DNA of 64,000 nucleotides, from positions 7,604 to 71,603 of the forward strand of contig CAYVZI010000004.1 in assembly GCA_964456475.1 (NCBI GenBank), written 5' to 3'. This stretch comes from an uncultured Candidatus Saccharibacteria bacterium. Its GTDB lineage: Bacteria > Patescibacteriota > Minisyncoccia > Phycocordibacterales > UBA9973. The position numbers and the translations under genes are program-made. Each line of letters starts with the position of its first letter. Position 1 is the first letter of the stretch. This document shows, piece after piece, positions 20,266 through 41,475 of the stretch. Under the pieces are notes generated by a model. That model saw nothing but the letters and a program-made list of their open reading frames with translations. It did no database searches and was not told where the DNA came from.

Positions 20266-20304
20266 CAAGCTTTTAAGCTTTCTAGCTGTTTAGCTTTTAA
20301 GGAA

Positions 20305-20670
20305 ATGCTTCATTCGTATAAAGAACTTATCGTCTGGCAAAAATCTATTGATTTAGGCGTGAAAGTATATTCAATCACCGAGAATTTCCCTCGAGATGAG
20401 ATTTATGGATTAACCTCTCAAATGAGGCGAGCGGCGATTTCTATTAGTTCAAACATCGCTGAGGGTAGAACACGAGGAAGCAAGCTTGAATTTATTCACT
20501 TTCTAAATATTGCCCATGGTTCGTGTGCAGAACTGGAATCCCAGGTTTTTATTGCTAAAAAACTAACTTTTTCAAGAGGTCTTAATTTCGACGAAATCGA
20601 AAAAAATATTCAGGAGATATTATTGATGTTAAGTGTTATGATTAGTAAATTAAGAAATAATAAAGCTTAA
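20305..20670 (+). CDS. four-helix-bundle protein (TIGR02436-like, formerly '23S rRNA intervening sequence protein'; Avd-related fold)
   Basis: Motifs EIYGLTSQMRRAAISISSNIAEG ... HGSCAELESQ typical of the family; flanked by inverted low-complexity repeats agcttttaagct / agcttaaaagct (20270-20304, 20667-20704). Confidence 0.8.
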   Translation: MLHSYKELIVWQKSIDLGVKVYSITENFPRDEIYGLTSQMRRAAISISSNIAEGRTRGSKLEFIHFLNIAHGSCAELESQVFIAKKLTFSRGLNFDEIEKNIQEILLMLSVMISKLRNNKA

Positions 20671-20704
20671 AAGCTCAAAAAGCTATAAAGCTATAAAGCT
20701 TCCT

Positions 20705-21109
20705 ATGAAATTCGCCGTTCCTCAATTTATCGATGTTGAAGATAAAGTTATTGGACCATTTACGTTCAAGCAATTTGCCTATCTCGTTGGGGCAGGTGGT
20801 ATGGTGTTTTTATGCTACAAGTTTTTGCCTTGGTATCTATATGTTCCACTTGGATTTGGGTTCGGAGCTCTGGGATTCGGATTGGCATTCTGGAAAGTAA
20901 ACGAGAAGCCCCTCATCAATACAATCGAGGCCATGTTCAACTATGCAATCAATGACAAATTGTATATTTGGAAAAAAGAAAAGAAAACAAAAAAAACTTC
21001 CGAACAAAAAACTGATGAGGAGATTAAGCAAATGCAGTACATTCCAAGAATATCTGAATCAAAGCTTCATGACATTGCGTGGGGGCTGGACGTATTAGAC
21101 AAAAGATAA
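20705..21109 (+). CDS. PrgI-like small membrane protein (VirB3 analog of Gram-positive T4SS)
   Basis: N-terminal AVPQFIDVEDKVIGPFTFKQFAYL followed by two TM helices, 134 aa, located just upstream of VirB4. Confidence 0.55.
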   Translation: MKFAVPQFIDVEDKVIGPFTFKQFAYLVGAGGMVFLCYKFLPWYLYVPLGFGFGALGFGLAFWKVNEKPLINTIEAMFNYAINDKLYIWKKEKKTKKTSEQKTDEEIKQMQYIPRISESKLHDIAWGLDVLDKR

Positions 21110-21118
21110 ACCGCTTTT

Positions 21119-21473
21119 GTCATACCGGACCCCGATCCGGTATCCATTCGCATGAATCATAATTCATACTATGTATATATACTTGCAAACAAAAAACGAG
21201 GCACGCTATACATAGGTGTAACAAATAATTTAAAACGTAGAATATACGAGCATAAAAACAAGCTTGCTGATGGATTCACAAAAATCCACAAAGTGAACAA
21301 CTTTGTACATTACGAAGAAACCAACGATGTTCGTTCAGCAATTACTCGAGAAAAACAATTAAAAAATTGGCAAAGAATTTGGAAGATAGATTTAATTGAG
21401 TCAACGAACCCTGAGTGGAAAGACTTGGAGTTATAAACGGCCCGCATGGATCCCGGATCGGAGTCCGGGATGA
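21119..21473. mobile_element. mini cassette: GIY-YIG nuclease gene bounded by 26-bp palindromic inverted repeats (gtcatMccggacYYSgatccggKatcc)
   Basis: Left copy 21119-21145 and right copy 21448-21473 are reverse complements (1-2 mismatches); a third solo copy lies at 56305-56330. Confidence 0.5.
21152..21436 (+). CDS. GIY-YIG nuclease family protein (small, UPF0213-like)
   Basis: YYVYILANKKRGTLYIGVTNNLKRRIYEH is a GIY-YIG core; 94 aa. Confidence 0.8.
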   Translation: MNHNSYYVYILANKKRGTLYIGVTNNLKRRIYEHKNKLADGFTKIHKVNNFVHYEETNDVRSAITREKQLKNWQRIWKIDLIESTNPEWKDLEL

Positions 21474-21572
21474 CAACATAGGGCAAAGTCCAGGATGACC
21501 ATTTTTATTTTTATATCATTCATTCCACTAAATTCACGTAATATTATCTGCTTCTAGTGCTATAATAATTTC

Positions 21573-22232
21573 ATGGCATTAAGTGCACAAGCAACTCAAG
21601 AATTTGTTCCCATCAAAGAGGTCCGAGAGGGGACTATTGTTTTGAAGGATGGTGGACTTCGAGCAATCGTAGCGGTATCTTCCGTAAACCTAGCCCTCAA
21701 ATCGAACGATGAACAAATTGCCACAATCAACCAGTTTCAATCGTTCCTCAACTCTGTTGATTTTCCTATTCAGATTGTTGTTCAGTCGCGCAGGCTCGAC
21801 ATTAGACCCTACCTCCTCATGCTTGAAGGCAAAATGAAAGACCAGCATGAACCACTCCTTAAACTCCAAACCGCAGGATACATAAGCTTCATCCGTGAAT
21901 TTACCGAGCAAGTTGCAATCATGCGTAAATATTTTTATGTAGTAATCCCATACGATGAAGCGATACTCTCCACAAAGAAAGGTTTCCTTGGGGGATTACT
22001 TGGAAACAACAAAACCAGCGGATCTCAAACAAAAGATGAGATTGCCGCATTTGAAGAAAAAAGAACTCAGCTCGACGAACGAGTAAACGTTATTTCTTCT
22101 GGACTTGGTTCATGTGGAGCACGTACAGAAAGACTACAAACAGAAGAGGTAATCGAATTATTTTATAAGACTTTCAACCCGGGAGATATTCAGCCCGTTA
22201 TTTCGCTTGGGGATATGCCCCAAGCGAAATAA
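21573..22232 (+). CDS. hypothetical soluble protein; possibly the detached N-terminal domain of a long Gram-positive-type VirB4
   Basis: 219 aa, no TM. The pattern REGTIVLKDGGLRAIVAVSSVNLALKSNDEQIATINQFQSFLNSVDFPIQIVVQS resembles, from memory, VirB4 N-terminal regions. Its stop codon sits inside a perfect 22-bp palindrome. Confidence 0.4.
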   Translation: MALSAQATQEFVPIKEVREGTIVLKDGGLRAIVAVSSVNLALKSNDEQIATINQFQSFLNSVDFPIQIVVQSRRLDIRPYLLMLEGKMKDQHEPLLKLQTAGYISFIREFTEQVAIMRKYFYVVIPYDEAILSTKKGFLGGLLGNNKTSGSQTKDEIAAFEEKRTQLDERVNVISSGLGSCGARTERLQTEEVIELFYKTFNPGDIQPVISLGDMPQAK

Positions 22233-22246
22233 CGGGCTGTTAATTA
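22199..22246. terminator. perfect 22-bp stem hairpin (cagcccgttatttcgcttgggg-atat-ccccaagcgaaataacgggctg) overlapping the stop of the 21573 ORF
   Basis: Read directly; no T-run follows, so function may be RNA processing rather than termination. Confidence 0.45.
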
Positions 22247-22301
22247 GGAATTACGAATTAAGAATTAGGAGTGCCGCCCAAACGCAATTTAATGCATAGC
22301 G

Positions 22302-22658
22302 ATGAAAGAAAACAATATAATACAACAGAAAAGCTATGCCTTTGCCTTAAAAATTATTGTTATATATCAACATCTAACAAGGGAACAAAAAGAATTCATT
22401 CTTTCAAAACAACTGATCCGATCTGGAACTTCTGTTGGTGCAAATGTGGAAGAGGCGATTGGAGCTCAATCAAAAAATGACTTTACTGCAAAAATGAGCA
22501 TTGCCTACAAAGAAGCTCGCGAAACCCTCTATTGGATTCGATTACTCACTGACGGTAAGTTCCTACAAGACCCTCAATCTGTTACACTATTAAAAGACTG
22601 CGACGAACTCTTGCGAATACTTGGTTCTATAATTGCGAGCAGTAAAATTCGTAAGTAA
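22302..22658 (+). CDS. four-helix-bundle protein (TIGR02436-like, Avd-related)
   Basis: LIRSGTSVGANVEEAIGAQSKNDFTAKMSIAYKEARETLYWIRLL family motifs; flanked by inverted repeats aattaggaatta (22233-22270) / taattcctaatt (22660-22712). Confidence 0.8.
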   Translation: MKENNIIQQKSYAFALKIIVIYQHLTREQKEFILSKQLIRSGTSVGANVEEAIGAQSKNDFTAKMSIAYKEARETLYWIRLLTDGKFLQDPQSVTLLKDCDELLRILGSIIASSKIRK

Positions 22659-22712
22659 TACTGTTTTCTCATTTTTAATTCCTAATTCCTAATTTTTAAT
22701 TTACTCTCATCT

Positions 22713-24551
22713 ATGGCACTCTTTGGATTATTCAACAAAAAAAAGGAGAATGGTGACAATTCTCGCATTCAGGCAAACGCCATGCCTATTTTTCCTGAGC
22801 AAATATATGAGGCGGCCTCACTCGAACTCAAAGACATCATTGCTCCCTCTGCACTCAAAATCGAACCTAAGTCTCTCAATCTCGGCGACAAAATTGCTCG
22901 CACCTATTTCGTCATTTCATATCCATCGATTCTCACTGACAACTGGCTCTCTCCAATCATCAACCTCGACAAAGTATTCGATATATCAATCACCATTCAC
23001 CCTGTCGAAACTGCTCAGATTCTTCGCACCTTCCAAAAGAAAGTAGCCGAAGTCCAGAGTCAGATAATGACCCGCGAAGCAAAGGGGATGGTGCGCGACC
23101 CAATGCTCGACATGGCAAACCGAAACCTGGAAGAACTTCGAGACCGTCTGACTCAAGCACAAGAAAAGATGTTTGATGTGGGACTCTACCTTACGATCTA
23201 CGCCGACAATGAGACCGAGCTCTTCAAAATCGAGAACGAAATCAAATCAATTCTCGAGGCGAAGCTCATCTACTTCAAGCCAGCCCTCTTCCAGCAAGAT
23301 GACGGATTCAAGAGCGTTATTCCGCTCGAAGACGACCATCTTCAAATCTATCAGAAACTCAACTCGGAACCGCTTTCGAGCTTCTTCCCGTTTGTATCAT
23401 TCGACCTCACCTCAGACAAAGGAATCCTCTACGGGGTGAATCGTCACAATTCCTCACTCATCATCTTCGACCGATTCAGTCTCGACAACTACAACTCAAT
23501 CATCTTCGCCACCTCTGGTGCCGGAAAATCATACGCGACAAAACTCGAAGTGATTCGCTGTCTCATGTTTGATACCGAAGTCATCGTAATCGACCCAGAA
23601 CGTGAATATGAACGCCTCGCAGAAGCTCTCGGTGGACGCTATTTCAATATCTCACTCAACTCTGGCTCACACATCAACCCATTCGACCTTCCACTTCCTG
23701 GTGAAGGGGAGACTGGAGCAGATATATTGCGCGGAAACGTGATCAATCTCGTTGGTCTTTTCCGCATCATGCTTGGAGGACTCTCTCCAGAAGAAGATGC
23801 GCTTGTTGATCGTGCAATTATGGAAACGTACGCCATCAAAGACATCACACCGGATTCTGATTTTTCACAAATTGAACCACCACTTCTTTCCGACTTCGAA
23901 ATGGTGCTTACCGGTATGGAGGGGACAGAATCAATCGTTTCCCGCCTTTCAAAATTCACTCACGGTTCATGGGCAGGATTCATCAACCAACCTTCAAACG
24001 TAGACATCAACAAAAAATTTGTAGTCTTCTCCGTGCGCGACATGGAAGACGACCTTAAGCCAGCAGCAATGTATATCGTGACCCACTTCATTTGGAACGA
24101 GGTTCGCAAAAACATCAAAAAACGTCTTTTGGTCGTGGATGAGGCATGGTGGATGATGAAATCAGACGATACGGCATCGTTCCTCTTCTCGATTGCCAAG
24201 CGTGGACGCAAATACTTCTTGGGACTCGCTACAATCACACAAGATGTGGGCGACTTCATGAAGAGTCCGTACGGAGTGCCAATCGTTACCAACTCATCAC
24301 TCCAACTCCTCCTGAAACAATCACCATCGACAGTAGATGTGCTTCAAAAGACGTTCAACCTCACTGATGAAGAAAAATATCTCTTGCTCGAGTGTAACAA
24401 GGGGGAGGGGATCTTCTTTGCCGGACTCAAACACGTGGCAATCAAGATTATTTCTTCATACACTGAAGACCAGCTCATCACGAGCGATCCTTCACAAATT
24501 CTCGCCCTCCAAAAATCTCGTACAGCTCTCACCGAGGCAGTAAAAAGCTAG
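22713..24551 (+). CDS. virB4: VirB4-family ATPase of a Gram-positive-type T4SS (TraE/PrgJ-like)
   Basis: N-terminal LKDIIAPSALKIEPKSLNLGDKIARTYFVISYP (VirB4-family signature), Walker A ATSGAGKSYATK, Walker B LLVVDEAWWMM, 612 aa. Confidence 0.85.
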   Translation: MALFGLFNKKKENGDNSRIQANAMPIFPEQIYEAASLELKDIIAPSALKIEPKSLNLGDKIARTYFVISYPSILTDNWLSPIINLDKVFDISITIHPVETAQILRTFQKKVAEVQSQIMTREAKGMVRDPMLDMANRNLEELRDRLTQAQEKMFDVGLYLTIYADNETELFKIENEIKSILEAKLIYFKPALFQQDDGFKSVIPLEDDHLQIYQKLNSEPLSSFFPFVSFDLTSDKGILYGVNRHNSSLIIFDRFSLDNYNSIIFATSGAGKSYATKLEVIRCLMFDTEVIVIDPEREYERLAEALGGRYFNISLNSGSHINPFDLPLPGEGETGADILRGNVINLVGLFRIMLGGLSPEEDALVDRAIMETYAIKDITPDSDFSQIEPPLLSDFEMVLTGMEGTESIVSRLSKFTHGSWAGFINQPSNVDINKKFVVFSVRDMEDDLKPAAMYIVTHFIWNEVRKNIKKRLLVVDEAWWMMKSDDTASFLFSIAKRGRKYFLGLATITQDVGDFMKSPYGVPIVTNSSLQLLLKQSPSTVDVLQKTFNLTDEEKYLLLECNKGEGIFFAGLKHVAIKIISSYTEDQLITSDPSQILALQKSRTALTEAVKS

Positions 24552-24595
24552 GGCTCCCTCTCCTTATTGAGAAGTATACATTCGTATTTCAGTTC

Positions 24596-25606
24596 ATGCT
24601 GTTATATAATAACTGTATGTTTCGCAAAGGATTACTACTGATTGTCTCTATCATATTTTTTTCGCTTCCATTCTCTGGAACTCTTTTTGCGCAGACTGCG
24701 GGGCAAATTTCTGTTGATATAATTCCTCAAAATCCAGGTCCGGATGAGACTGTTACCATCTATTTAAAAAGCTACTCTTTCAATATAAATACAGCATATA
24801 TTGAATGGTCTGCGGATGGCATTATGCAAAAAGGCGGAGTAGGAGTTACCTCATTCAAAGTTACAACAAAAAAACTGGGGGACACCACACAAGTCGCAGC
24901 AAAAATCACGCCAACAGGGTCAATTCCAATTATAAAAAATATCTCCATCACTCCAATGTCAGTAGATATACTCTGGCAAGCTACGGATTCGATCGTTCCA
25001 CCATTCTATAAAGGCAAGGCGATGCCTACATCAGAATCAAAAATCAAACTTGTGGCTCTTCCTCAAATCGTATCGGTATCAGGAAACCGCGTAGCACCTG
25101 AGGTTCTTGTATACAACTGGAAAGAAGAATATCAAAACAAACAAGCGAGTTCTGGATATGGAAAAAATTTTTTCTTTACAGAAATGGATTATTTGAATAC
25201 TCAAAAAAATGTCTCTGTTGATGTCTCTTCTCGAGATGGAGGTATTGCTACTAGAGGTTTTGTTGATGTTTCTTCAGTAGACCCAGAATTACGTCTGTAC
25301 GCTTCGAGCCCACTCTACGGACCGCTTACCGATACAGAACTCACTGATTCATTCACTGTATCGACTAGCGATATATCAATCGTTGCAATGCCATACTTCT
25401 TTTCACCAGGTAATCCATCCTCGTCACTTCTTGAATACAAGTGGCAATTGAATGGTTCACCAATTGGCACACCTGCCATTCCAAACGCGCTCTTTCTCCA
25501 TCGTGAATCAAATTCGACAGGGAACGCCACGCTTGAACTTGTCGTCACAAACATTACCAAGCTGTTCCAGTCCGGAACCGCACGTTTGAACCTAACCCTT
25601 CAATAG
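24596..25606 (+). CDS. secreted hypothetical protein
   Basis: Signal peptide LLLIVSIIFFSLPFSGTLFAQTA; 336 aa. Confidence 0.45.
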   Translation: MLLYNNCMFRKGLLLIVSIIFFSLPFSGTLFAQTAGQISVDIIPQNPGPDETVTIYLKSYSFNINTAYIEWSADGIMQKGGVGVTSFKVTTKKLGDTTQVAAKITPTGSIPIIKNISITPMSVDILWQATDSIVPPFYKGKAMPTSESKIKLVALPQIVSVSGNRVAPEVLVYNWKEEYQNKQASSGYGKNFFFTEMDYLNTQKNVSVDVSSRDGGIATRGFVDVSSVDPELRLYASSPLYGPLTDTELTDSFTVSTSDISIVAMPYFFSPGNPSSSLLEYKWQLNGSPIGTPAIPNALFLHRESNSTGNATLELVVTNITKLFQSGTARLNLTLQ

Positions 25607-25607
25607 T

Positions 25608-27395
25608 ATGAAGAAAAAAATATTTTCCTCGCTAGTGTGTGCACTATTGTTTTTTACAGGAGCATCTTTAGCAAAAGCTGAACTAACAGATATCAAAGGT
25701 GTTGTATCAGATCCAAAAATTACAATTTCAAGAATTGACGGGCAAATTATAGCAACCATTACAGGAACGCTCGATAGCAAAGGTGTCAAACTATACAACG
25801 ATACAAATGTATTAAGACCAATATACGCCCTTTATCAAAAACGTGATGTCAATACAAAAAACAGTGCTTGGAGTGACCGGGATGAGGCTGTTAGAGATCC
25901 AATAAGATGCAATCTTGACCCAGATACGCCACCAGAAGAAATTGGTGGATTGTCTTTTATTTGTACTGTTCCGAACTTAACCTATGGAACATACGTTTTT
26001 GACGTTGGTATTCTGTTTTCTTCTTTTAGCGATAGCTACAGTGTGCTAAATAATAATTTTATTATTGAAAACGTCACTGATGTTCCTTACAAGAGCGGTG
26101 TTGATGCGTCTGTTTCTATTACCCCAAACACCGACAGCTCGGTCAGTGTTACTGGATATTTAAATACCCCAGCCAAAGAAAGTTCAAAGGCTCTGAACAT
26201 AATCTATGGTGAAGTTTTTACATTTGACATACCGAACCAAAAAAGAACTCAAATCAAGGGTTATCAAGCTGACGTTTTGACAAAAGAGCCTGTGGTTGTT
26301 CATAAATCAGAAAATCCTCCTTCGTATAATGCAATTTTTACACCACCAGGTCCTGGAACTTATGTTTTGGCTGTTGTTGATAGCTCGGGTGCGCTTCTGA
26401 GCTCGTATAAGCAATTTACAGTTGTTGGAACGGGTATAAACCCAGATTCAGACAATGGTATCGGTCCAAATGCACTTGGCTGTGTCAACGAGAAAGACAA
26501 CAAGAGTTACTGTCTCCTCGCCCCACTGCCTGGAGTAGGGGACACTACGGGCAAGCTCGATGTAAGCACCGGAATTGGAAATTATTTCAACATGATTATC
26601 AAACTCGTCATGGGTATCATTGGTGTACTTGCCGTACTTATGGTGGTTGTGGGAGGTATTGAATACATGTCTACCGTCAACCTTGGCGAAAAGGAAGGTG
26701 CTCGCGCCCGAATTACCAGCGCTATTCTCGGTCTTCTCCTAGCTCTTGGTGCATTTCTCATCCTAAAAACAATCAATCCCGACCTCGTGAATGTAAATAT
26801 TGGAGTGCCAAAGGGGGTCATTGTGGAAGGAGACCCCGGAGATGATATTGACGAATCTGATGCGAAGATAGCAAACAGTGGTGCGATAACTCCCGGCGTG
26901 GTTGTCCCGACTGGAACAGCTCAGGAACTAGCAAAACAAATTCTCAATAGTTCAAAAATTACCTTGGCAACAGAATCTTGGAATGGCGGACCATCCGCAA
27001 CAGCAAGACAAAATATTTTAGACACAATCAACGGTCAAGGTGCGGTAACGAGTACAAGGGGATCAAAAGGTGGTGCTCGCGTGCCTCTCCAAACAAGTGT
27101 ACTTGCTGGAGCAATTGCTGTCTCAAACGTAACCCCGATTCAAATAAATGCATTTGTAAACGGAAGACATGATTCTTCGTTGTCTCGGCATTACATTGGA
27201 GCGGCGATGGACATTCAATCTGCGCCATCAGAGATACAGCGCACAAAGACAATTCTCGGTGCTTGTAAAGCAGCAGGAGCGACTGAATTTTTGGGACCAT
27301 GCAACAACAACCTTTCAAAAAAAATATGTGACGCAACCGGCTTTCCCACAAACAGTGGGCATCAAACTCACATACACTGTGGTTGGCCACGTTAA
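25608..27395 (+). CDS. T4SS-associated envelope protein: N-terminal secreted domain, internal VirB2/TrbC-like two-helix membrane hairpin, C-terminal M15 (LAS) metallopeptidase domain
   Basis: Signal peptide; VirB2-like MIIKLVMGIIGVLAVLMVVVGGIEYMSTVNLGEKEGARARITSAILGLLLALGAFLIL; M15 zinc motifs SRHYIGAAMD (SxHxxGxAxD) and HIH (HxH) near the C-terminus. Confidence 0.5.
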   Translation: MKKKIFSSLVCALLFFTGASLAKAELTDIKGVVSDPKITISRIDGQIIATITGTLDSKGVKLYNDTNVLRPIYALYQKRDVNTKNSAWSDRDEAVRDPIRCNLDPDTPPEEIGGLSFICTVPNLTYGTYVFDVGILFSSFSDSYSVLNNNFIIENVTDVPYKSGVDASVSITPNTDSSVSVTGYLNTPAKESSKALNIIYGEVFTFDIPNQKRTQIKGYQADVLTKEPVVVHKSENPPSYNAIFTPPGPGTYVLAVVDSSGALLSSYKQFTVVGTGINPDSDNGIGPNALGCVNEKDNKSYCLLAPLPGVGDTTGKLDVSTGIGNYFNMIIKLVMGIIGVLAVLMVVVGGIEYMSTVNLGEKEGARARITSAILGLLLALGAFLILKTINPDLVNVNIGVPKGVIVEGDPGDDIDESDAKIANSGAITPGVVVPTGTAQELAKQILNSSKITLATESWNGGPSATARQNILDTINGQGAVTSTRGSKGGARVPLQTSVLAGAIAVSNVTPIQINAFVNGRHDSSLSRHYIGAAMDIQSAPSEIQRTKTILGACKAAGATEFLGPCNNNLSKKICDATGFPTNSGHQTHIHCGWPR

Positions 27396-27452
27396 AAAAC
27401 AGAAATCCCAGACTTTCAACTTTGAGCTTTCTCCTTTATACTTAGCCTATAG

Positions 27453-29123: not shown

Positions 29124-29145
29124 GAGAAATCCTAAAACACGCAGC

Positions 29146-33181: not shown

Positions 33182-33745
33182 ATGATTGATTTCAACCAGC
33201 TATACAAATGGGTAAAAATTGAAACTGGTATTGATAGACAAGAGATTGTATCAAAAACCAGAAAACAGAAGGTTGTTACTGCTCGAGCGTTGTTTATTAC
33301 AATGGCTTCAAAAACTGGGTTCTCGTATAGTTCTATAGCAAAAGAATTAAAAAGAGATCATACTTCTATTTTACACCTTATAAATACACGCTCTGAATCA
33401 GAATTTATAAATAGAGTAGTAGGGAAATATGATTTAGAAATAAAAAAAAATTATTCCAATAATGAAGAAAAAATTAAACAACAATTACGATTTAGAGGAT
33501 TAACAAATGGTAAAAATTCTTATAAGTCGGTTTATGAGAAATATAATGGTAAATGTATGGTTTGTAGTTTTGATGAAGTTGTAGAAATTCATCATATAAT
33601 TCCAAGATATTTAGGTGGTAGTGATGAATTAGAAAATCTTGCATTGCTTTGTCCCAACCATCACGCATTAGCTGACAGGGGAGCAATTCAAATTAAAGGA
33701 AAATTGGAACTTATCCACCAAGAAATTGGTAATCCACAGGGTTAA
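33182..33745 (+). CDS. fusion of a DnaA domain-IV-like DNA-binding HTH with an HNH endonuclease
   Basis: N-terminus KVVTARALFITMASKTGFSYSSIAKELKRDHTSILHLIN parallels DnaA domain IV of the adjacent dnaA (KEIVKVRQIVMFILREDFNVSYPLIGQKLGGKDHTTVIHSCL); C-terminus CMVCSFDEVVEIHHIIPRYLGGSDELENLALLCPNHHALAD is an HNH motif. Confidence 0.65.
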   Translation: MIDFNQLYKWVKIETGIDRQEIVSKTRKQKVVTARALFITMASKTGFSYSSIAKELKRDHTSILHLINTRSESEFINRVVGKYDLEIKKNYSNNEEKIKQQLRFRGLTNGKNSYKSVYEKYNGKCMVCSFDEVVEIHHIIPRYLGGSDELENLALLCPNHHALADRGAIQIKGKLELIHQEIGNPQG

Positions 33746-33768
33746 TAGTAATAGTAATTTATATATAT

Positions 33769-34866
33769 ATGATATTCGAAACTACTGTTGAAAAGCTGAT
33801 TGGAGTAATAGAGAATGCAGATCGGGTAACAGCTCGAAACGCATCTCTTCCAGCACTTGGTACAATCCTACTTGTTGTTTCTGGAACAACCTTAAAAATA
33901 CGTGCGACCAACTTAAGCTTGGGTGTCGAGTTTGAACTTCAAATTAAAAAAGAAAAAGATGGAGTCACTGCAATTGATGGAAAAACACTTTACACATTTC
34001 TTAATACACTCCCAAAAAACGAAAAGATTAAAATAGCACAAGAGGATTCTATTCTTACACTCACTACGGCTCACAATAAAACCACAATCAAAACCCACCC
34101 ATACGAAGATTTTCCAACCCTCCCTTCAGTTTCGGGTACCACAATCCAAATTCCCCAGAAAGAATTTATTCGTGGAATAAAGAATACTTATTTTTCAGCA
34201 GCAGTTTCAGACATAAAACCCGAGATTGCGAGTGTGTATATGGCCTCAAATGAAAATGTTCTTTATTTTGTTGCTACAGACTCATTTCGACTTGCAGAGA
34301 AGAAAGAAAATTTAAAGAGAGCTGTAGAGTTTTCCCCAATTCTCATACCATACAAAAATTGTATTGAAATTGTGCGTATTCTTGAAAATACAACCGAAGA
34401 AATAACTCTTTCTATATCTGAAAACCAAATAGCAATTATGGTTTCTGGTGTATATATTACTTCAAGACTTACTTCAGGGAGTTTTCCGGATTACAAACAA
34501 ATTATCCCCAAAGAGTTTCAAACCGAAATTATTGTATTAAAACAAGATCTTCTTAATACTTTAAAAGCAGCAAATATTTTTTCCGACAAGTTTAATCAAG
34601 TAACTTTTTCTATCACCCCTTCAAAGAAAAAGTTTGAATGTATATCAAAAAACAGCGATGTAGGCGAATATTCCGGTGTTATAGACGCTACACTTACCGG
34701 AGATGACGTCTCAATCTCTCTCAATCAACGCTATTTGATTGAATGTCTCTCATTCATCCCTCAAGACAGTATTGCAATTGGATTGAATGGCGGGGCAAAA
34801 GCGGTCGTTATACGCGGTGTGGGAGATAACTCGTTTACATACCTTCTTATGCCGATGAATCGTTAG
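33769..34866 (+). CDS. dnaN: DNA polymerase III beta sliding clamp DnaN
   Basis: 365-aa three-domain clamp-like protein directly after dnaA; C-terminal LLMPMN-like end. Confidence 0.85.
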   Translation: MIFETTVEKLIGVIENADRVTARNASLPALGTILLVVSGTTLKIRATNLSLGVEFELQIKKEKDGVTAIDGKTLYTFLNTLPKNEKIKIAQEDSILTLTTAHNKTTIKTHPYEDFPTLPSVSGTTIQIPQKEFIRGIKNTYFSAAVSDIKPEIASVYMASNENVLYFVATDSFRLAEKKENLKRAVEFSPILIPYKNCIEIVRILENTTEEITLSISENQIAIMVSGVYITSRLTSGSFPDYKQIIPKEFQTEIIVLKQDLLNTLKAANIFSDKFNQVTFSITPSKKKFECISKNSDVGEYSGVIDATLTGDDVSISLNQRYLIECLSFIPQDSIAIGLNGGAKAVVIRGVGDNSFTYLLMPMNR

Positions 34867-34888
34867 AAAATAAAAAATTAAAAGAAAA

Positions 34889-35149
34889 ATGAAAAGATTA
34901 GGGGATTTTTTAGAACGATTTATTAAACTTGCTCAATCGAGTGATGATGCAAAACAAGCAGTTGTTGATTCTTTGGTAAAAAACGGGATTCGATACAGTG
35001 GGGGAATCGATACAATTACAGTTCGAGGAACTGTTGCTACACTGAAATTAAGTCCCATTCAAAAAAGTGAAATCGCAATGAAACAAAAAAAGATACTTGC
35101 GACACTAGCCGAAAATCCTATAACAAAACACATCACTATAGTGAGATAA
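34889..35149 (+). CDS. DUF721/DciA-like small protein (putative helicase-loading factor)
   Basis: 86 aa; pattern VRGTVATLKLSPIQKSEIAMKQKKILATLAEN...ITIV fits the DUF721 layout; position right after dnaN as in many genomes. Confidence 0.4.
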   Translation: MKRLGDFLERFIKLAQSSDDAKQAVVDSLVKNGIRYSGGIDTITVRGTVATLKLSPIQKSEIAMKQKKILATLAENPITKHITIVR

Positions 35150-35182
35150 AAAAACCAGCGCCTTAGGCGCTGGTTTTTAACT
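35150..35182. terminator. bidirectional rho-independent terminator (aaccagcgcc-ttag-gcgctggtt, A-run/T-run)
   Basis: Perfect 9-bp GC-rich stem flanked by aaaaa and ttttt between convergent genes. Confidence 0.6.
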
Positions 35183-35209
35183 TTATAAACTTTATAAACT
35201 TTATAACCT

Positions 35210-37729
35210 TCAACTTATAATAATGTTCACATTCGCCGTTCCTGTGGATTCTACAGTATCAGTTCCAATAATCATCAATGAGTTTATACCCACCTGGATA
35301 TTTGGAATTTGATTTGGGGTGAAGGTAAAAGTAGGGGACGTACCATTTGCTGTTCCTACATACACATTACTCAAAAAGACATCTATTTTTTTGAGTGGAA
35401 ACTTTCCATTTGATGTTACTGAAACAGTTACAAGACTGTTTTCTGAAACAATACTCCCTTCTATCGGGCTCACTATTGAAATGTGAGGCATGTTTTCTTG
35501 GGTATGTATATCATCAAATGATGTTGGTTTTTGAGCCTCTGTTATGATTGTGTATGCTGAACTGTTTACTCTCCACCAATCTTGTACAGCTGTTTCCCAG
35601 TTGTGGTACAACCCCTCATCACGGGAATTTCCAAGACTGCGAGGGTTTGATCTATTTACCCAATGGAGAATGTCGTGTACATCAGTTATTACGTATTCTT
35701 TTCTTGTTGTCTTAGGTGTAAAAGCAGTAGCGAGTTTGCCAGATATCGTATCAATAACATAACTTGTTCCACCCTGCCAGTATCCACGAAGTACTGGAGG
35801 TAGGGTTTCGTATTCTGGATCAATTTCTGGTTTTTCAAATGTTTCCAAAGGGTATGACTTTAATGCCTCAGCCATAAATTGGTGCCAAATTGGCGATCCT
35901 GTAATTCCTTTGTATAGCGGAGTATTGTCGTTTAATCCAGCCCACACACCAGCAACAAGTGACGGTGTATACCCAATTGTCCAAAGGTCTTTAAAATCGT
36001 TTGTAGTACCTGTTTTTGCCGCTACTTGCCGATCAGAGAAATAGAGAGGGGATGTTGGTCCGAATGTTAGTCGACGAGCATTGTTGTCTGAGAGAACATC
36101 ACTTATTTGCAAAGTCACATTTTTTGGAAGAACTTGAGTGGAGCTGTCTTTGTATGATTCAAGAATAGTTCCACTATTGTTTGTTACAGAAAGAATTCCA
36201 GTACTTTGACGCGCTGTTCCACCATTTGCAAAAACACTATACGCAGAAATTTGATCGACAAGTTTTACTTCTCCTCCTCCAAGAACAAGAGAAAGGCCGT
36301 ATCGACTTGCATCATTGAGAGAGGTGATACCCAGATCCTTTGCTGTTTTTATGGTATTTGGAATTCCAACCATATAAAGCATTTTCACCGCAGGAACGTT
36401 GATGGAGCTTCCGAGTGCTGTACGGATATCCATTGGGCCAGAGTACCTCTCATAATCAACTGGCATGTAACAAGCGCTCTGAGGAGCACCATTTAGGGGT
36501 CGGCTGTATGGGTCGCATCGTGTGCTAAATTCCGTAGGAACATCAAACAAGACAGTATCTGGAGTGTACCCTTGTTTGAAGGCTGTAGCATACATATATG
36601 GCTTAAATGAAGAGCCTGGTTGGCGAAGAGCTGTTGCAACATTGAAATTACCGTCGATTTCTTTGTCGAAGTAATCTCGCGATCCGACCATGACGAGAAT
36701 CTGCCCAGTTTTTGGGTCTGCCGCGACAAGTGCTGCATTGAGTTTTGCAACCGCTTGTTTGCGGGCTCCTATCGTGTAATCTGCAACAGCCTTTTCTGCA
36801 ATCTGTTGCAGATTGTAATCAAGAGTCGTAATCACTTTTAAACCTCCAGATTCAACCATATCTACACCGTATTTTTGTTCAAGATATCCCTTGATAAAAA
36901 AAACAAAATGAGGAGCTTTGATACCGTTTGATTTTTGGGGATTCCAGACCACTTGTTCTGCTTTGGCTTCTGTAAACTGTGCTTCGGTAATAAATCCAAG
37001 CTCGTATTCACGTGACAGAACCAAGTTTTTACGTTTTTCTAACTCGTCTTTGTGCGATCCGTATGGAGAGTAACGAGTCGGTGCATTTGGGATCGAAGCA
37101 AGATATGCTGACTCTGCAATCGTTAGGTCTGCTGGGTTTTTACCAAAAAATGCTTGAGATGCCTCTTGAATTCCAAAAATATTTCCACCATACGGAATTT
37201 GATTGAGATAAATTGCTAAAATATCTTCCTTTCCATATTCTCTCTCAAGTTTAAGAGCAAGAATTATTTCCTTGAGTTTTCGAATAATAGTTTTTTCGCT
37301 CGTGAGCAAAGTCTGCTTGATTACTTGCTGGGTGATAGTGGATCCTCCTTGTCCGATAACACCAGGAATAATGCGAAGGTTTACAAGAACAGCACGAAGA
37401 AATGATTTTGGACGGAAGCCTCGATGGTTGTAGAACTCTGAATCTTCAATAGCAACTGTCGCGTTTTTGATATGTACCCCCATCTCTGCGTTTGTGATAG
37501 AAGTACGTCTTGCATCAGAACCCAGGTCGTACAACACAATCTCTCCCGTGCGGTCATAAATTTTGGTGGAATTTACCTGTTTTCGCGTTTCGAAGGAAGT
37601 GAAGTCAGGGAGACGGATAAAGCTAATCCAAATGATTGCTATACCAAAAATAAAGGCTCCAACACCAAGCGTGGTAAAGAAAACATTACGAATATGATGT
37701 TTTGAAATTTTTTGTAAGTGCTGTTTCAT
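35210..37729 (-). CDS. ponA: class A penicillin-binding protein (bifunctional transglycosylase/transpeptidase, PBP1A-like) with extra C-terminal domain
   Basis: GT51 motifs EDSEFYNHRGF and RKLKE; transpeptidase SSFKP, SxN, KTGTT; N-terminal TM; start trimmed to MKQHLQKISKHH (37729) to avoid overlap with tyrS. Confidence 0.85.
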   Translation of the reverse strand: MKQHLQKISKHHIRNVFFTTLGVGAFIFGIAIIWISFIRLPDFTSFETRKQVNSTKIYDRTGEIVLYDLGSDARRTSITNAEMGVHIKNATVAIEDSEFYNHRGFRPKSFLRAVLVNLRIIPGVIGQGGSTITQQVIKQTLLTSEKTIIRKLKEIILALKLEREYGKEDILAIYLNQIPYGGNIFGIQEASQAFFGKNPADLTIAESAYLASIPNAPTRYSPYGSHKDELEKRKNLVLSREYELGFITEAQFTEAKAEQVVWNPQKSNGIKAPHFVFFIKGYLEQKYGVDMVESGGLKVITTLDYNLQQIAEKAVADYTIGARKQAVAKLNAALVAADPKTGQILVMVGSRDYFDKEIDGNFNVATALRQPGSSFKPYMYATAFKQGYTPDTVLFDVPTEFSTRCDPYSRPLNGAPQSACYMPVDYERYSGPMDIRTALGSSINVPAVKMLYMVGIPNTIKTAKDLGITSLNDASRYGLSLVLGGGEVKLVDQISAYSVFANGGTARQSTGILSVTNNSGTILESYKDSSTQVLPKNVTLQISDVLSDNNARRLTFGPTSPLYFSDRQVAAKTGTTNDFKDLWTIGYTPSLVAGVWAGLNDNTPLYKGITGSPIWHQFMAEALKSYPLETFEKPEIDPEYETLPPVLRGYWQGGTSYVIDTISGKLATAFTPKTTRKEYVITDVHDILHWVNRSNPRSLGNSRDEGLYHNWETAVQDWWRVNSSAYTIITEAQKPTSFDDIHTQENMPHISIVSPIEGSIVSENSLVTVSVTSNGKFPLKKIDVFLSNVYVGTANGTSPTFTFTPNQIPNIQVGINSLMIIGTDTVESTGTANVNIIIS

Positions 37730-37787
37730 ATACTCATAATAGCATGTTCGAAAGGACAAAAAAGACCTTTTGTGGTAAAGTGTTTTT

Positions 37788-39155
37788 ATGAAATCGATAG
37801 ATATTGAAGAGTTGTTTTCTCGCGGAGTTGCGAGCTTTATTGATCCCGACAATTCATTCCGAAAGAAAATTGAAGCCAAAATTGCCGGCACATACAACAA
37901 GGACATCATCATTAAGCTTGGTATGGATCCAACTCGTCCAGATATTCACCTCGGTCACGCAGTGATTCTGCGCAAACTTCGCCAATTTCAAGATGTGGGC
38001 TGTAAAGTTGTTTTTCTGATTGGTGACTATACAACAATGATTGGAGACCCTACAGGCAAAAACAAGACTCGACCAGAATTGAGTCAGCAAGAAATCGAGA
38101 GAAATATGAAGACATATCTTGAGCAAGCAGGGAAGATTCTATCCCTTGATGCGAAGGTTTTTTCTTGGATACGAAATTCTGATTGGTTTCTGAATGTGAC
38201 CGATATTATTCCCGGAGACCCCAATACTTCTATTCGTGTTGGTTCTGGACTTGGTTTTGTCAAAGCCGGCTCGTTTCTTGGTAAGGCAAAAATCTTTGAT
38301 GATTCACGAATGCAAGCTACTCATTTGAAAAAAGACAAAACCCTAACGGTTAGTTTTACAAATGTATTGTCTACTCTTCGTCATATTACTCACGCAAGAC
38401 TCATCGAGCGTGATATGTTTCAAGAAAGACTTTCAAACGGGGGAGAGTTGTACATGCACGAAATGCTCTACCCTGTGTTGCAAGGTATCGATTCATTCGC
38501 GCTTGCGAATATCTACGGCTCGTGCGACTTAGAAATTGGGGGAACCGATCAAACCTTCAACATGCTTATGGGTCGTGATGTAATGCGCATGAATAAGCAA
38601 GACGAACAGGGGGTTATGTCCCTCGATATCCTCGAAGGACTTGATGGAAATGAGAAGATGAGTAAGTCATTAGACAATTATGTGGGAATTACTGACGCGC
38701 CGAACGACATGTATGGTAAAATACTTTCAATTCCAGATACTCTTATTCCAAGATATTTTGCACTCGCAACCTACACACCCCTTTCTGAAGTCGAGGAGAT
38801 AGAAAAATCTCTCGCTTCAAAAAATCCACGTGACGCAAAAATGCGACTCGCTCGAGAAATCGTCGCAATATATCATGGAGAAGGAGCTTCTCAGTCTGCT
38901 GAGACTCACTTTGTTGAAACATTTTCAGAAAAAAAGATTCCCGAAAACGTTCCGGAAATAGAAGGTGATTTTACAACGATTATCGATGCTATGATGCAGG
39001 CGGAATGTGCAGATTCAAAATCTGAAGCACGACGACTGGTGGAGGCTGGTGCGGTGACACATCTTGAAAGCGATGTGAAAATAACCGACCCAAACCAAAA
39101 ACCCGAAAAAGGAACATATCGAGTAGGGAAGTTGCGGTTCTTTAGGATTCGATAA
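37788..39155 (+). CDS. tyrS: tyrosine--tRNA ligase (with C-terminal S4 domain)
   Basis: HIGH region GMDPTRPDIHLGHAV, KMSKS (EKMSKSLDN), C-terminal S4-like ARRLVEAGAVTHLE. Confidence 0.8.
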   Translation: MKSIDIEELFSRGVASFIDPDNSFRKKIEAKIAGTYNKDIIIKLGMDPTRPDIHLGHAVILRKLRQFQDVGCKVVFLIGDYTTMIGDPTGKNKTRPELSQQEIERNMKTYLEQAGKILSLDAKVFSWIRNSDWFLNVTDIIPGDPNTSIRVGSGLGFVKAGSFLGKAKIFDDSRMQATHLKKDKTLTVSFTNVLSTLRHITHARLIERDMFQERLSNGGELYMHEMLYPVLQGIDSFALANIYGSCDLEIGGTDQTFNMLMGRDVMRMNKQDEQGVMSLDILEGLDGNEKMSKSLDNYVGITDAPNDMYGKILSIPDTLIPRYFALATYTPLSEVEEIEKSLASKNPRDAKMRLAREIVAIYHGEGASQSAETHFVETFSEKKIPENVPEIEGDFTTIIDAMMQAECADSKSEARRLVEAGAVTHLESDVKITDPNQKPEKGTYRVGKLRFFRIR

Positions 39156-39157
39156 AT

Positions 39158-39192
39158 AAAAAGCCTCGCTTTAAGCGAGGCTTTTTATTTTA
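39158..39192. terminator. bidirectional rho-independent terminator (aaaaagcctcgctt-taa-gcgaggcttttt)
   Basis: Perfect stem flanked by A-run and T-run between tyrS (+) and the minus-strand operon. Confidence 0.6.
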
Positions 39193-39378
39193 GAGATCTG
39201 CAGTTGGCAAGTCACTCTCGTCATCATCTTCGTCATCAGCGAGAAGGTCGTCGTCTGCGACTCCGAGATCGTCTGCAAGGAACTCATCATCGATGTCAGT
39301 ATCGTCATCACTGAGAGCGCTACCTGTAAATTCTGGATCTTCGTCAGAAGGGCGAATGTTGTCTTCTTCAAATTGCAT
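39190..39378 (-). CDS. highly acidic small protein (Asp-rich, 62 aa), hypothetical; last gene of the ruvB-ruvC operon
   Basis: MQFEEDNIRPSDEDPEFTGSALSDDDTDIDDEFLADDLGVADDDLLADDEDDDESDLPTADL; co-directional 92 bp downstream of ruvC, terminator follows. Confidence 0.35.
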   Translation of the reverse strand: MQFEEDNIRPSDEDPEFTGSALSDDDTDIDDEFLADDLGVADDDLLADDEDDDESDLPTADL

Positions 39379-39470
39379 ACTATTTTTATAAGTTACTTAT
39401 AATATCCTCCATTTGTAACAGATAGTGATTTTCTCCGCAAGACATTTTTTTAACGAAAGTGTGGATAACA

Positions 39471-39947
39471 TCACCCCTTCTTTACGTATGCGAATGCAGT
39501 GAGTGCTACAGCTATTGCATCGACTTCGTCATCGATCATTTTTCGAGTGGGGAGCTTGATTAGTCGAGGCACCATATCCATAATTGCTCTCTTGTCGCTC
39601 TTGCCATATCCAGTCACTGCAACTTTGATTTCAAGTGGAGTGTATTCGTGTATCGAGAGTTTTGCACGTGCTCCTTCATAGAGAATCACTCCTCGAGCTT
39701 CGGCTACCACCATCGCCGTTTTTGTATTGGTTTCAAAAAAAAGTTTTTCAATTGCCATGCCATCAGGCTTGTATTCGGAGATAATTTTTGCGATTTCTTC
39801 TCCTACTAAAACGAGGCGGTCGGTATGTGAAAGCTTGGAAGATGTCTTGAAGCACTCAGAAAAAAGGAATGTTTCCTTCCCGGCGATTCGTTCTATCACT
39901 GCGATTCCAACACGTTCTATACCAGGATCTATTCCGAGGATAATCAT
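39471..39947 (-). CDS. ruvC: crossover junction endodeoxyribonuclease RuvC
   Basis: MIILGIDPGIERVGIAVIE N-terminus and RNase-H-like catalytic layout, 158 aa. Confidence 0.85.
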   Translation of the reverse strand: MIILGIDPGIERVGIAVIERIAGKETFLFSECFKTSSKLSHTDRLVLVGEEIAKIISEYKPDGMAIEKLFFETNTKTAMVVAEARGVILYEGARAKLSIHEYTPLEIKVAVTGYGKSDKRAIMDMVPRLIKLPTRKMIDDEVDAIAVALTAFAYVKKG

Positions 39948-39956
39948 AGTTCAATT

Positions 39957-40369
39957 TCTAATATCTAATTTCTAATGTCTAAGGAATTCAATTTTGACTT
40001 GCGAGCAACGGAAACAAAAATCTTTCTGAGTTCCTCTGCCTCGTTGAATAAGTTTAATAATTCGTCTTGATTTTCTTCTATCTCGATAAGAAGCTTTAAC
40101 CAGTATTCGGTTTCTTGTGCTTCTTTCTTGCAAATTCCTATCTTGTGTTCAAAATCTTTTCTTGATTCGGCACCGTCTGCCTCGTGGTAATTAGCTCCAA
40201 TACTCGTTCCGGAACGAATACATTGAAGTATACAATTTTGGTTTATAGTCGTTCTCTTTATTCTTTTAAAACACGAAAGAAGATTTTTGCTAAACGAAAA
40301 AGTTCGTTCTTTCAAATCATATTTTTTTGGATTTTCATTAGACATTAGAAATTAGAACTTAGACATTGG
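39957..40369. mobile_element. cassette: four-helix-bundle gene bounded by about 19-bp inverted repeats (tctaatttctaatgtctaa / ttagacattagaaattaga) that overlap the ruvB stop and the cassette gene start
   Basis: Left IR 39957-39984, right IR 40336-40369; related same-family copies flank ruvB on its other side (41365-41390, 41440-41475). Confidence 0.45.
39965..40345 (-). CDS. four-helix-bundle protein (TIGR02436-like, Avd-related), inserted between ruvB and ruvC
   Basis: IRSGTSIGANYHEADGAESRKDFEHKIGICKKEAQETEYWLKLL family motifs; 126 aa. Confidence 0.75.
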   Translation of the reverse strand: MSNENPKKYDLKERTFSFSKNLLSCFKRIKRTTINQNCILQCIRSGTSIGANYHEADGAESRKDFEHKIGICKKEAQETEYWLKLLIEIEENQDELLNLFNEAEELRKIFVSVARKSKLNSLDIRN

Positions 40370-41357
40370 ATTCAGGCATGTCGAATCCCAAATGCTCATA
40401 GGCTTTCTTTGTTACCGTTCGTCCGCGTGGTGTCCGTTCGAGCAAGCCGCGCTGAATGAGGTAGGGCTCAGTCACTTCTTCGATTGTAGCTTCTTCTTCG
40501 CTCGTTGCCGCTGCGATGGTGCCGAGGCCGACTGGCCCACCACCGAATTTTTCGATGATTACTTGCAACACTTGTCTGTCGGATTCCGAAAGACCGAGTT
40601 CGTCGATTCCGAGGAGGGAAAGCGCCAGAAAGACTGTTTTCTTATCCAAATCCTTTTTGTGGACTTGTGCGTAGTCGCGACAACGTTTGAGAAAATAGTT
40701 GGCAGTACGAGGTGTGAAGCGCGAACGCTTTGAAATTTCGGTAATTGCTTCGTCGTCAATAGTTACGCCGAGTACTTTTGCTGAGCGGCGAATAATCTTC
40801 GCGATTTCTTCTTCGGTATAAAACTCAAGACGATATGTTCCACCAGAAAAACGTGATCGAAGCGGGGAAGAGAGAAGGGCGATGCGAGTGGTCGCAGCGA
40901 TCAGGGTGAATGCTGGAAGGTCGAGCTGGATTGTGCGAGCTGATGGTCCTTTGCCGATGATTATATCGAGCACACCGGACTCCATTGCGGGATATAGCAC
41001 TTCTTCGATTGTTTTGTTGAGACGATGAATTTCGTCGACAAAAAGAATATCGCCAGGTTGAAGATTGGTAAGTATTGATGCAAGGTCGCCGACTTTTTCG
41101 ATTGCAGGACCTGATGTTGCTTTGAGTGAGCGACCGGTTTCTTTCGCAATCAAATGAGCGAGCGTGGTCTTCCCAAGCCCTGGTGGTCCATAAAAAAGAA
41201 TATGTTCGGCAGGATGATTGCGCTCACTCGCTGCTTGGAGGAGAATTTTGAGATTTTGTTTGATAGATTCTTGTCCGATGTAGTCGTCAAAAGTGCTTGG
41301 ACGGAGTGTGTGGTCCAAATACGCATCGAATTCTTTTTTATTTTCTGCTGGTTCCAT
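40359..41357 (-). CDS. ruvB: Holliday junction branch migration ATPase RuvB
   Basis: AAA+ GPPGLGKTTLAH, sensor motifs, 332 aa. Confidence 0.9.
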   Translation of the reverse strand: MEPAENKKEFDAYLDHTLRPSTFDDYIGQESIKQNLKILLQAASERNHPAEHILFYGPPGLGKTTLAHLIAKETGRSLKATSGPAIEKVGDLASILTNLQPGDILFVDEIHRLNKTIEEVLYPAMESGVLDIIIGKGPSARTIQLDLPAFTLIAATTRIALLSSPLRSRFSGGTYRLEFYTEEEIAKIIRRSAKVLGVTIDDEAITEISKRSRFTPRTANYFLKRCRDYAQVHKKDLDKKTVFLALSLLGIDELGLSESDRQVLQVIIEKFGGGPVGLGTIAAATSEEEATIEEVTEPYLIQRGLLERTPRGRTVTKKAYEHLGFDMPESNV

Positions 41358-41364
41358 AATTATT

Positions 41365-41475
41365 ATGTTTCAATATCTAAGTTCTAATGTCTTTTTTTTA
41401 AAAAATACTATTTTTTTGTTTTTTGTGCCCGTATCTCGTTAGACATTAGAAATTAGGTCTTAGGATTTGGGTCAA
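41365..41475. repeat. empty or solo inverted-repeat pair of the ctaatgtctaa family enclosing only about 50 bp
   Basis: caatatctaagttctaatgtct (41365-41390) and gttagacattagaaattaggtcttagg (41440-41475) in inverted orientation. Confidence 0.4.

Follow-up and report, generated by a model that had tools for sequence, protein, structure and literature searches.

Four-helix-bundle genes between inverted tandem-repeat arms in a Candidatus Saccharibacteria contig: probable intervening-sequence-type cassettes in protein-coding operons

What kind of unit places a small four-helix-bundle (4HB) gene between inverted repeats (IRs) in the middle of an operon, and how does it come to be there? The question is raised by a 64,000-nt stretch of DNA from an uncultured Candidatus Saccharibacteria bacterium (GenBank assembly GCA_964456475.1, contig CAYVZI010000004.1, positions 7,604 to 71,603 of the forward strand; hereafter the window), which carries three such genes. 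An earlier note, made from the sequence alone, took them for tiny elements within operons, resembling intervening sequences (IVS) or miniature inverted-repeat transposable elements (MITEs) and carrying genes of the Avd fold. Empty sites in relatives and an anatomy matching that of the Coxiella 23S rRNA IVS bear this proposal out, and we consider it reasonably probable that the elements are promoterless, IVS-type gene cassettes living in mRNA operons. The units concerned are as follows, with IR coordinates in this text taken from inverted-repeat alignment and tandem arrays within arms from Tandem Repeats Finder (TRF).

20267..20701, + strand: cassette 1, 435 nt, with a 4HB open reading frame (ORF) at 20305-20670 (121 aa)
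20267-20301, + strand: 5' arm of cassette 1, 8-mers AAGCTTTT x4.4
20662-20701, + strand: 3' arm of cassette 1, AAAGCTAA x4.8, overlapping the stop codon of the ORF
22242..22702, + strand: cassette 2, with a 4HB ORF at 22302-22658 (118 aa)
22242-22270, + strand: 5' arm of cassette 2, 7-mers AATTAGG/AATTACG/AATTAAG
22665-22702, + strand: 3' arm of cassette 2
39952..40368, - strand: cassette 3, with a 4HB ORF at 39965-40345 (126 aa)

All three genes are bracketed by IRs of 27-36 nt: 36 nt in cassette 1 (20256-20291 / 20677-20712, 75%) with a core of higher identity (20275-20298 / 20678-20701, 88%), 27 nt in cassette 2 (22242-22268 / 22668-22694, 89%) and 35 nt in cassette 3 (39952-39986, the sense 3' arm, and 40334-40368, the sense 5' arm, 89%). 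TRF array period was 8 in cassette 1 and 7 in cassettes 2 and 3, and the units were distinct in each cassette, those of cassette 3 being TTTCTAA / TTAGAAA. Cassette 1 separates a gene for a 296-aa protein from prgI, cassette 2 a TraC-like gene from virB4, and cassette 3 ruvB from ruvC, which makes PrgI, a VirB4/TraG-like ATPase, RuvB and RuvC the operon neighbours. In cassette 3 the 5' arm holds the RuvB stop codon (40359-40361) as its first TAA, with the 4HB start, part of a TAATG (40343-40345), at its end; a TAG inside the 3' arm serves as the 4HB stop, and the RuvC ATG follows 17 nt further on. The earlier note was accurate on each of these points, namely the bracketing repeats, the difference between repeat families, the location inside operons and the overlap of repeats with the ruvB stop and the 4HB start.

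The cassette proteins match PF05635 (Pfam, ‘23S rRNA-intervening sequence protein’; E 4e-37, 1e-26 and 7e-15 for cassettes 1, 2 and 3, respectively) and the NCBIfam model TIGR02436 ‘four helix bundle protein’ (123, 106 and 76 bits vs a cut-off of 24). Pairwise identity among them was merely 16-22%, so they represent three lineages rather than recent duplicates, and a hidden Markov model built from the three detected no fourth copy within the 64-kb window. The closest solved structures were 2GSC (XCC0516, E 6e-24) and 2RLD. Values of dN/dS for the 4HB ORFs ranged from 0.02 to 0.18; for the cassette 1 ORF compared with its nearest relative (contig L178) dN/dS was 0.024, with a comparable 0.012 for VirB4. 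The cassette 4HB protein is under strong purifying selection. PADLOC and Rfam (gathering threshold) returned no match for cassettes or arms, and Rfam detected no rRNA within the window.

Comparison with relatives revealed the cassettes to be insertions. Contigs L169-L174, in which VirB4 is 91-93% aa identical to that of the window, share the operon order 280-aa gene, prgI, TraC-like gene, virB4; the three spacers measure 3-12, 43-47 and 4-15 nt in this order, and cassette 1, cassette 2 and a small GIY-YIG element, described below, are all absent. At the first junction L173 reads TAAcctATG, where the window reads TAAc, the 435 nt of cassette 1, and cctATG, so that both edges of the insert coincide exactly with the outer IR ends. 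In L178, which encodes the closest homologue of the cassette 1 protein (95% aa), and in L179 (67% aa) cassette 1 is found at this very site, and both contigs lack the GIY-YIG element and cassette 2; cassette 1 is therefore older, and the other two insertions are younger. Cassette 2 was absent from every relative examined, with a TraC-like|VirB4 spacer of 3-15 nt in L169-L174, L178 and L179. These empty sites supply the insertion polymorphism that had been named as a check of the original proposal.

The history of cassette 3 is longer. A metagenome scan with RuvB, which returned relatives of no more than 80% identity and without 4HB genes, had suggested that this cassette is unique, and that view was rejected: the closest homologues of its protein (70-82% aa) are encoded next to ruvC, on its upstream side, in L175-L177, where RuvB is 90-92% identical to that of the window, the gene order is ruvB-yebC-[4HB]-ruvC and the arms belong to the same TCTAA/TTAGA family. 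Presence at the same site in these relatives implies that cassette 3 is old and vertically kept rather than recent. Relatives with RuvB identity of 80% or less have either ruvB-yebC-ruvC or ruvB and ruvC 8-22 nt apart, with no cassette 3 and no heptamers at this locus. In the window yebC is missing, and the edge of the deletion coincides with the outer end of the cassette 3 5' arm. Window RuvB, for which there was no exact match on record, ends in ...DMPESNV*, its last codons and stop coming from the cassette arm (40359-40368).

An independent case was found in Bacteroidota, where contigs L006 and L007 (thiolase 91% nt identical) differ by one whole cassette, located directly after the thiolase TAA in one and replaced by a 26-nt spacer in the other. 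In other Bacteroidota this thiolase junction is occupied by a complete cassette or by a solo heptamer hairpin, or is an ordinary spacer. No target-site duplication was visible at junction 1 or in the L006 vs L007 comparison, and no transposase domain was found in or beside the window cassettes. The cassette is gained or lost whole, arms included, in tiny spacers between operon genes. Solo hairpins, consisting of two arms and no gene, are found at sites of these kinds as well and show insertion polymorphism too.

Scanning a single genome per species yielded 80 loci with PF05635 relatives (L001-L080), mostly from Bacteroidota, with further ones from Acidobacteriota, Desulfobacterota, Spirochaetota, Bacillota, Verrucomicrobiota, Elusimicrobiota and several lineages of the Candidate Phyla Radiation (CPR). 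Nearly all of them displayed tandem 7-8-mers upstream of the gene and their reverse complement downstream, the unit sequence varying by locus. The median Smith-Waterman IR score was 18, compared with 8 for mismatched flanks, and 75% of loci exceeded the 95th percentile of this control. TRF arrays had a period of 7 in 163/228 cases and of 8 in 24/228, and the density of such arrays was 3.3/kb at the ends of 4HB ORFs vs 0.18/kb elsewhere, a 19-fold difference. Most cassettes (72/79) had the same orientation as both neighbours.

With plasmid records (L161-L168) added, about 97 cassettes were examined, and the design is shared across at least six phyla (Bacteroidota, CPR, Cyanobacteria, Chloroflexota, Spirochaetota and Bacillota). 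Plasmid cassettes with the same arms came from Nostoc, Anabaena, Planktothrix, Euhalothece, Pseudanabaena, Chlorohelix (Chloroflexota), Treponema and Monoglobus, and were located between cas2 and cas1, csx2 and cas1, DrmD and PglX, helicase and methylase, or hsdS and hsdR; a PF05635 gene was also found beside TnsA, and heptamer arms were present at every such site. The best plasmid match of the cassette 2 protein was Monoglobus (48%; arms AATTAGG/AATGAGG), a member of another phylum that also provided the best match to the cassette 2 arms among the 97 cassettes. Overall, arm similarity followed protein similarity down to about 45% identity (Mantel r = 0.145, 1/300 permutations, with host relatedness as a confounder), a pattern that would fit arms and ORF travelling together. 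As far as sequence comparison goes, the evidence for insertion polymorphism and for generality across phyla is good.

Relative to ORF direction, upstream arms in L001-L080 were poor in C (8% C, 22% G) and downstream arms poor in G (9% G, 19% C), with the opposite polarity in window cassette 3. This asymmetry could point to a strand-specific role, or may reflect the many related Bacteroidota loci sampled.

Besides the three cassettes, the window contains further arrays and IR-bounded insertions, more than the earlier note had listed:

41358..41478, - strand: family-3 solo hairpin, arms 41441-41461 and 41372-41392, 48-nt loop
21117..21476, + strand: GIY-YIG insertion between prgI and the TraC-like gene, ORF 21152-21436 (94 aa)
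52952..53037, + strand: solo heptamer hairpin between PEMT-like and holA-like genes, duplex -37.6 kcal/mol
53767..53799, + strand: third holA-family arm, directly after the holA-like stop, duplex -39.6 kcal/mol
8866..8895, + strand: single heptamer array CTAAACC/CTAGACC x4.3, upstream of a helicase-like ORF
48318..48350, + strand: single heptamer array TAGAAAG x4.7, just past a stop codon and just before a terminator-like GC hairpin

The family-3 solo hairpin lies on the other side of ruvB from cassette 3. Its arms (21 nt, 86% complementary, duplex energy -17.8 kcal/mol) belong to one of two copies of family 3 in the window, whereas each other cassette arm family is represented once. The hairpin, of ~120 nt, sits between a conserved leader (ATGTCAAGC; ATGTCAAGCGCA) and the RuvB start at 41357: L176 reads ATGTCAAGCCCAGTGCACACTATGGAC at the ruvB start, and the window reads ATGTCAAGCGCA, ~120 nt with both arms, and ATGGAA, RuvB now starting at that ATG. 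Both nearest relatives, L175 and L176 (RuvB 92% and 90% aa), lack it. There is a weak resemblance between the loop and the initial ~21 nt of the cassette 3 ORF, an A-rich region, and the hairpin would fit an internally deleted, MITE-like derivative. Of the two options that had been offered for positions 41365-41475, an empty site or a MITE, the hairpin fits the latter; it is not an empty target site.

The GIY-YIG element is bounded by a GC-rich IR not based on heptamers (21117-21150 / 21443-21476, 34 nt, 88%) and was absent from the PrgI|TraC-like spacer in all relatives examined (L169-L174, L178, L179); judged by these ends and its absence elsewhere, it gives this operon a second type of small insertion bounded by IRs. 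Near the holA-like gene (53042-53770), an arm composed of TAGGGGA/TAGGGTA/CAGGGTT/TAGGGTA (52952-52980) faces a (CCTAACC)x7.4 array at 52983-53037, which is 100% perfect according to TRF, has a telomere-like sequence and has probably grown by recent slippage. Complementarity between the arm at 53767-53799 and 52983-53037 means that the holA-like gene has heptamer arms, three in all and of one family, on its two sides. The array at 8866-8895 is of the same word family as the holA arms and had no partner arm nearby.

How would such cassettes live in an operon? The nearest precedent is the 428-nt IVS of Coxiella burnetii 23S rRNA, a selfish element with an S23p (PF05635) ORF (Warrier et al. 2016, PMC4990558), in which terminal IRs form a 28-bp stem cleaved by RNase III mid-stem, and 2-3 tandem GACAGAT heptamers, strain-variable in number, directly precede the S23p ATG (PMC4990558). 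PF05635 ORFs also occur within 16S and 23S insertions of CPR bacteria (10.1101/2024.02.27.582315). With the S23p IVS of Leptospira and Coxiella the window cassettes share a PF05635 pentameric four-helix bundle, a size class of ~430 nt, terminal IRs giving a ~28-bp stem around the ORF and variable heptamers before the ATG, and the S23p IVS is likewise regarded as a selfish insertion. They differ in host, which is helix 45 of 23S rRNA for the IVS and type IV secretion system (T4SS)-like and ruvB-ruvC protein operons in the window. The Coxiella ORF is also reported to be decaying and probably untranslated, in contrast to the constrained window ORFs, and the RNase III cutting shown in Coxiella is extended to the window cassettes by analogy. 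The PF05635 protein, the terminal-IR stem and the tandem repeats at the ORF start are thus all present, and the rRNA location is lacking, which supports classing the window cassettes as S23p-type IVS cassettes in protein-coding operons that fail the family's rRNA-location feature.

On this model the cassette, ~420-460 nt long, opens with a 5' arm in which a 7-8-nt unit is repeated 3-5 times in tandem, continues with a short leader and a PF05635 gene of ~120 aa, closes with a reverse-complement 3' arm, and would be transcribed as part of the host operon. Within the operon transcript the arms would pair into a stem of ~25-35 bp around the ORF; in computed RNA folds (minimum free energy and centroid) the arms of all three cassettes do pair, with arm-arm duplex energies of -26 to -37 kcal/mol. 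By analogy with the S23p-encoding Coxiella 23S IVS, we infer an RNase III site in this stem; a cut there would free the cassette RNA and divide the polycistronic mRNA in two. Stop codons are carried by the A/T-rich units, such that upstream frames would close within the arm, as that of RuvB does, and this closure may help make insertion at gene boundaries tolerable. It follows as a prediction that operon mRNAs are punctuated at cassette stems in an RNase III-dependent manner. For the pentamer-type 4HB protein, the obvious candidate role is binding of the repeat arms, whether as RNA or as DNA.

Several results weigh against the IVS-type reading as just set out. Arm mismatches comprised 73 of G:U type and 97 of A:C type on the sense strand (p = 0.08), and with no G:U excess, selection acting specifically on a sense-RNA stem is not demonstrated. 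Strict compensatory covariation between the arms of orthologous cassettes was not seen either; arm change between close relatives (the window vs L178, and cassette 3 vs L175-L177) consists of unit turnover and register shift, and looks like slippage rather than compensatory substitution. The insert has complete arms, whereas an RNase III product would lose the outer half-stem, so the cut alone cannot explain mobility. Heptamer arms also bracket ordinary genes (ruvB and the holA-like gene), and are therefore not exclusive to 4HB genes. Lastly, a sense stop was carried by 71% of upstream units vs 67% of base-shuffled units. The description of the repeats as rich in stop codons is correct, and this richness is explained by the base composition of the units; the idea of stop codons placed ‘by design’ was dropped as an adaptive claim.

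The absence of a G:U excess, of strict compensatory change and of stop enrichment leaves a role of the arms at the DNA level as a serious rival, which we hold to be possible, at a good deal less than even probability. The arms would then be terminal inverted repeats or iterons for a trans-acting recombinase or for the 4HB pentamer, which would insert and excise the cassette or regulate it, and the RNA stem would be incidental. Insert boundaries that coincide with the outer IR ends, gain or loss of the whole unit and solo hairpins behaving like MITEs or REPINs (REP doublets forming hairpins) are all in keeping with this, as are perfect arrays such as (CCTAACC)x7.4, which point to slippage dynamics of DNA, and the match of arm to protein similarity seen in the Mantel test and in the pairing of cassette 2 with Monoglobus. 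However, there is no transposase, integrase or nuclease within the cassette, we know of no catalytic activity in PF05635 proteins, no target-site duplication is visible, three unrelated arm families within 20 kb of one genome argue against a single sequence-specific enzyme, and the sense-orientation bias would be unexpected for a purely DNA-level element.

Short tandemly repeated repetitive (STRR) sequences, intergenic heptamer arrays of Cyanobacteria, were reportedly described by Mazel et al. in 1990. Heptamer arrays of Beggiatoaceae (TAACTGA repeats), Cyanobacteria and Bacteroidetes are treated by MacGregor 2015 (PMC4679880), and those of Nostoc in 10.1101/2022.06.06.494920. Like the cassette arms, they consist of 7-nt tandem units of variable copy number at gene boundaries in Cyanobacteria and Bacteroidota, with their function unexplained; unlike the cassette arms, the arrays treated in these reports are direct ones upstream of genes, with no PF05635 gene or paired inverted arms. 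Nor did the literature searched contain a link between PF05635 genes outside rRNA and inverted heptamer arms, the Coxiella IVS heptamers coming nearest. One could suppose that the heptamer arrays in the window are generic regulatory repeats of this sort at operon junctions, where 4HB genes merely accumulate. Translational or transcriptional roles have been proposed for heptamer arrays (PMC4679880, 10.1101/2022.06.06.494920), and arrays or hairpins unlinked to a 4HB gene do exist, both in the window (8866, 48318, 52952-53037, 53767) and at 76 places in related loci. We nevertheless find this improbable, as empty sites in relatives lack arms and ORF alike, array density at 4HB ends is 19 times that in the rest of these loci, and the arms form complementary pairs particular to each cassette. 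An origin of the repeats as low-complexity sequence by chance, or as ordinary intrinsic terminators, has a negligible probability in our judgement. The arms are indeed A/T-rich and intergenic, but seven period-7 arrays were observed in the window vs 0.17 expected in Markov-1 simulations, the family-3 pattern TCTAANNTCTAANNTCTAA had 11 matches vs 0.33 expected, all confined to the four family-3 arms, and the same design recurs across the about 97 cassettes. The terminator reading was rejected on the ground that 350-400 nt separate the arms and there is no U-tract.

A further question is whether the cassettes are related to the diversity-generating retroelement (DGR) in the same window, as the earlier note had thought possible. 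Its genes are:

59738-60079, - strand: bAvd (PF22296, 8e-12), adjoining the reverse transcriptase (RT)
60092-61222, + strand: DGR RT ORF, with its own bAvd adjacent

Avd, itself pentameric and able to bind nucleic acid and RT, belongs to the same 4HB superfamily as the PF05635 proteins, and cassettes 1 and 2 do have sub-threshold matches to NF033474 (23.7 and 18.5 bits, cut-off 80) and PF22296 (18.7 and 19.4 bits, cut-off 40), cassette 3 matching neither. Still, we consider it very improbable that the three genes are extra Avd paralogues serving the DGR at 59.7-61.2 kb. Their scores lie far under the Avd cut-off, the DGR already has its own bAvd next to the RT, profile-profile comparison with the DGR Avd gave a probability of 0.8%, and the cassettes lie 20-40 kb away in unrelated operons, with no adjacent RT, template repeat (TR) or variable repeat (VR). 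Many loci with homologous cassettes have no RT nearby, and no heptamer arms were detected at the bAvd gene of the window. A DGR link was accordingly rejected on model scores, profile-profile comparison and distance; by these measures the relationship is at superfamily level only, and to that extent alone does the suggested connection to the avd at 59738 survive.

A (GT)15.5 run at 60092-60122 is located exactly between the divergent avd and RT ORFs, and overlaps the listed GTG start of the latter.

Two other classes of mobile unit resemble the window cassettes in part. REPINs and MITEs (Bertels & Rainey 2011, PMC3116915) are likewise intergenic, insertion-polymorphic two-arm solo hairpins with a short spacer, of which cargo-carrying and empty versions coexist. 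The window cassettes have the terminal IRs and the absence at orthologous sites typical of these elements; they differ in showing no target-site duplication and no evident transposase or REP-associated tyrosine transposase (RAYT), and in having arms made of tandem 7-8-mers that differ between cassettes rather than forming one high-copy family. Integron cassettes are promoterless single-gene units co-oriented with host transcription, with an imperfect inverted-repeat site of their own that is conserved in structure rather than sequence. Their attC site lies on one side of the gene and they need an integrase and an attI platform, whereas the window cassettes have arms on both sides and are scattered in unrelated ordinary operons.

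PF05635/TIGR02436 is among the commonest unexplained small gene families of bacterial genomes, and in guilt-by-association screens its members have been found near cas1/cas2, BREX/DISARM and restriction genes (PMC3936711, PMC10910872). If 4HB genes are self-contained cassettes that enter any operon spacer, such CRISPR and defence associations would be insertion artefacts, and the published links of PF05635 to CRISPR adaptation and defence genes may reflect a habit of inserting into operons. The architecture would also connect 23S rRNA intervening sequences, intergenic heptamer repeats (STRR, TAACTGA) and Avd-fold proteins. In streamlined CPR genomes, with spacers of 3-15 nt, it illustrates how a foreign gene can be fitted in among essential cistrons with no visible damage. 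A much broader and speculative reading, which we think rather unlikely, is that PF05635 genes with inverted heptamer arms constitute a widespread, so far unrecognised class of promoterless mobile cassettes, in which the pentameric protein would recognise 7-nt arrays, be they RNA or DNA, and help the cassette that encodes it to spread or to be retained. The long-unexplained heptamer arrays and hairpins found between genes in Cyanobacteria (STRR), Bacteroidota, Beggiatoaceae and CPR would then be the remains of decayed cassettes, and the ‘association’ of PF05635 with CRISPR, BREX/DISARM and restriction-modification operons would be an insertion habit and not a function. Were this so, the 4HB protein might act with a host polymerase or RT, by analogy with Avd in DGRs.

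Some smaller features were recorded alongside. A perfect 22-bp hairpin (CAGCCCGTTATTTCGCTTGGGG / CCCCAAGCGAAATAACGGGCTG) at 22191-22239 spans the last ~13 codons and the stop of the TraC-like gene upstream of cassette 2; the C-terminal codons of relatives are unrelated to it, and it looks like another small insertion, one that has rewritten a gene end. In L031 and L050 (~2950-2975) the gene preceding the cassette has an 8-bp hairpin across its stop codon, reading cttcgcaa-ctag-ttgcgaag in one and cttcgtaa-ttaag-ttacgaag in the other, a compensatory change that keeps the pairing. Upstream of ruvB, a segment of ~130 nt (41624-41807) lies inside a 28-nt IR (…GGCATAAATCTCTAA / TTAGAGATTTATGC…); it is conserved in L175 and L176, had no Rfam match at the gathering threshold and may be an undescribed or divergent small RNA. 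Finally, a perfect 28-nt IR with a 4-nt loop at 62565-62624 begins inside the 3' end of a tRNA (62502-62573).

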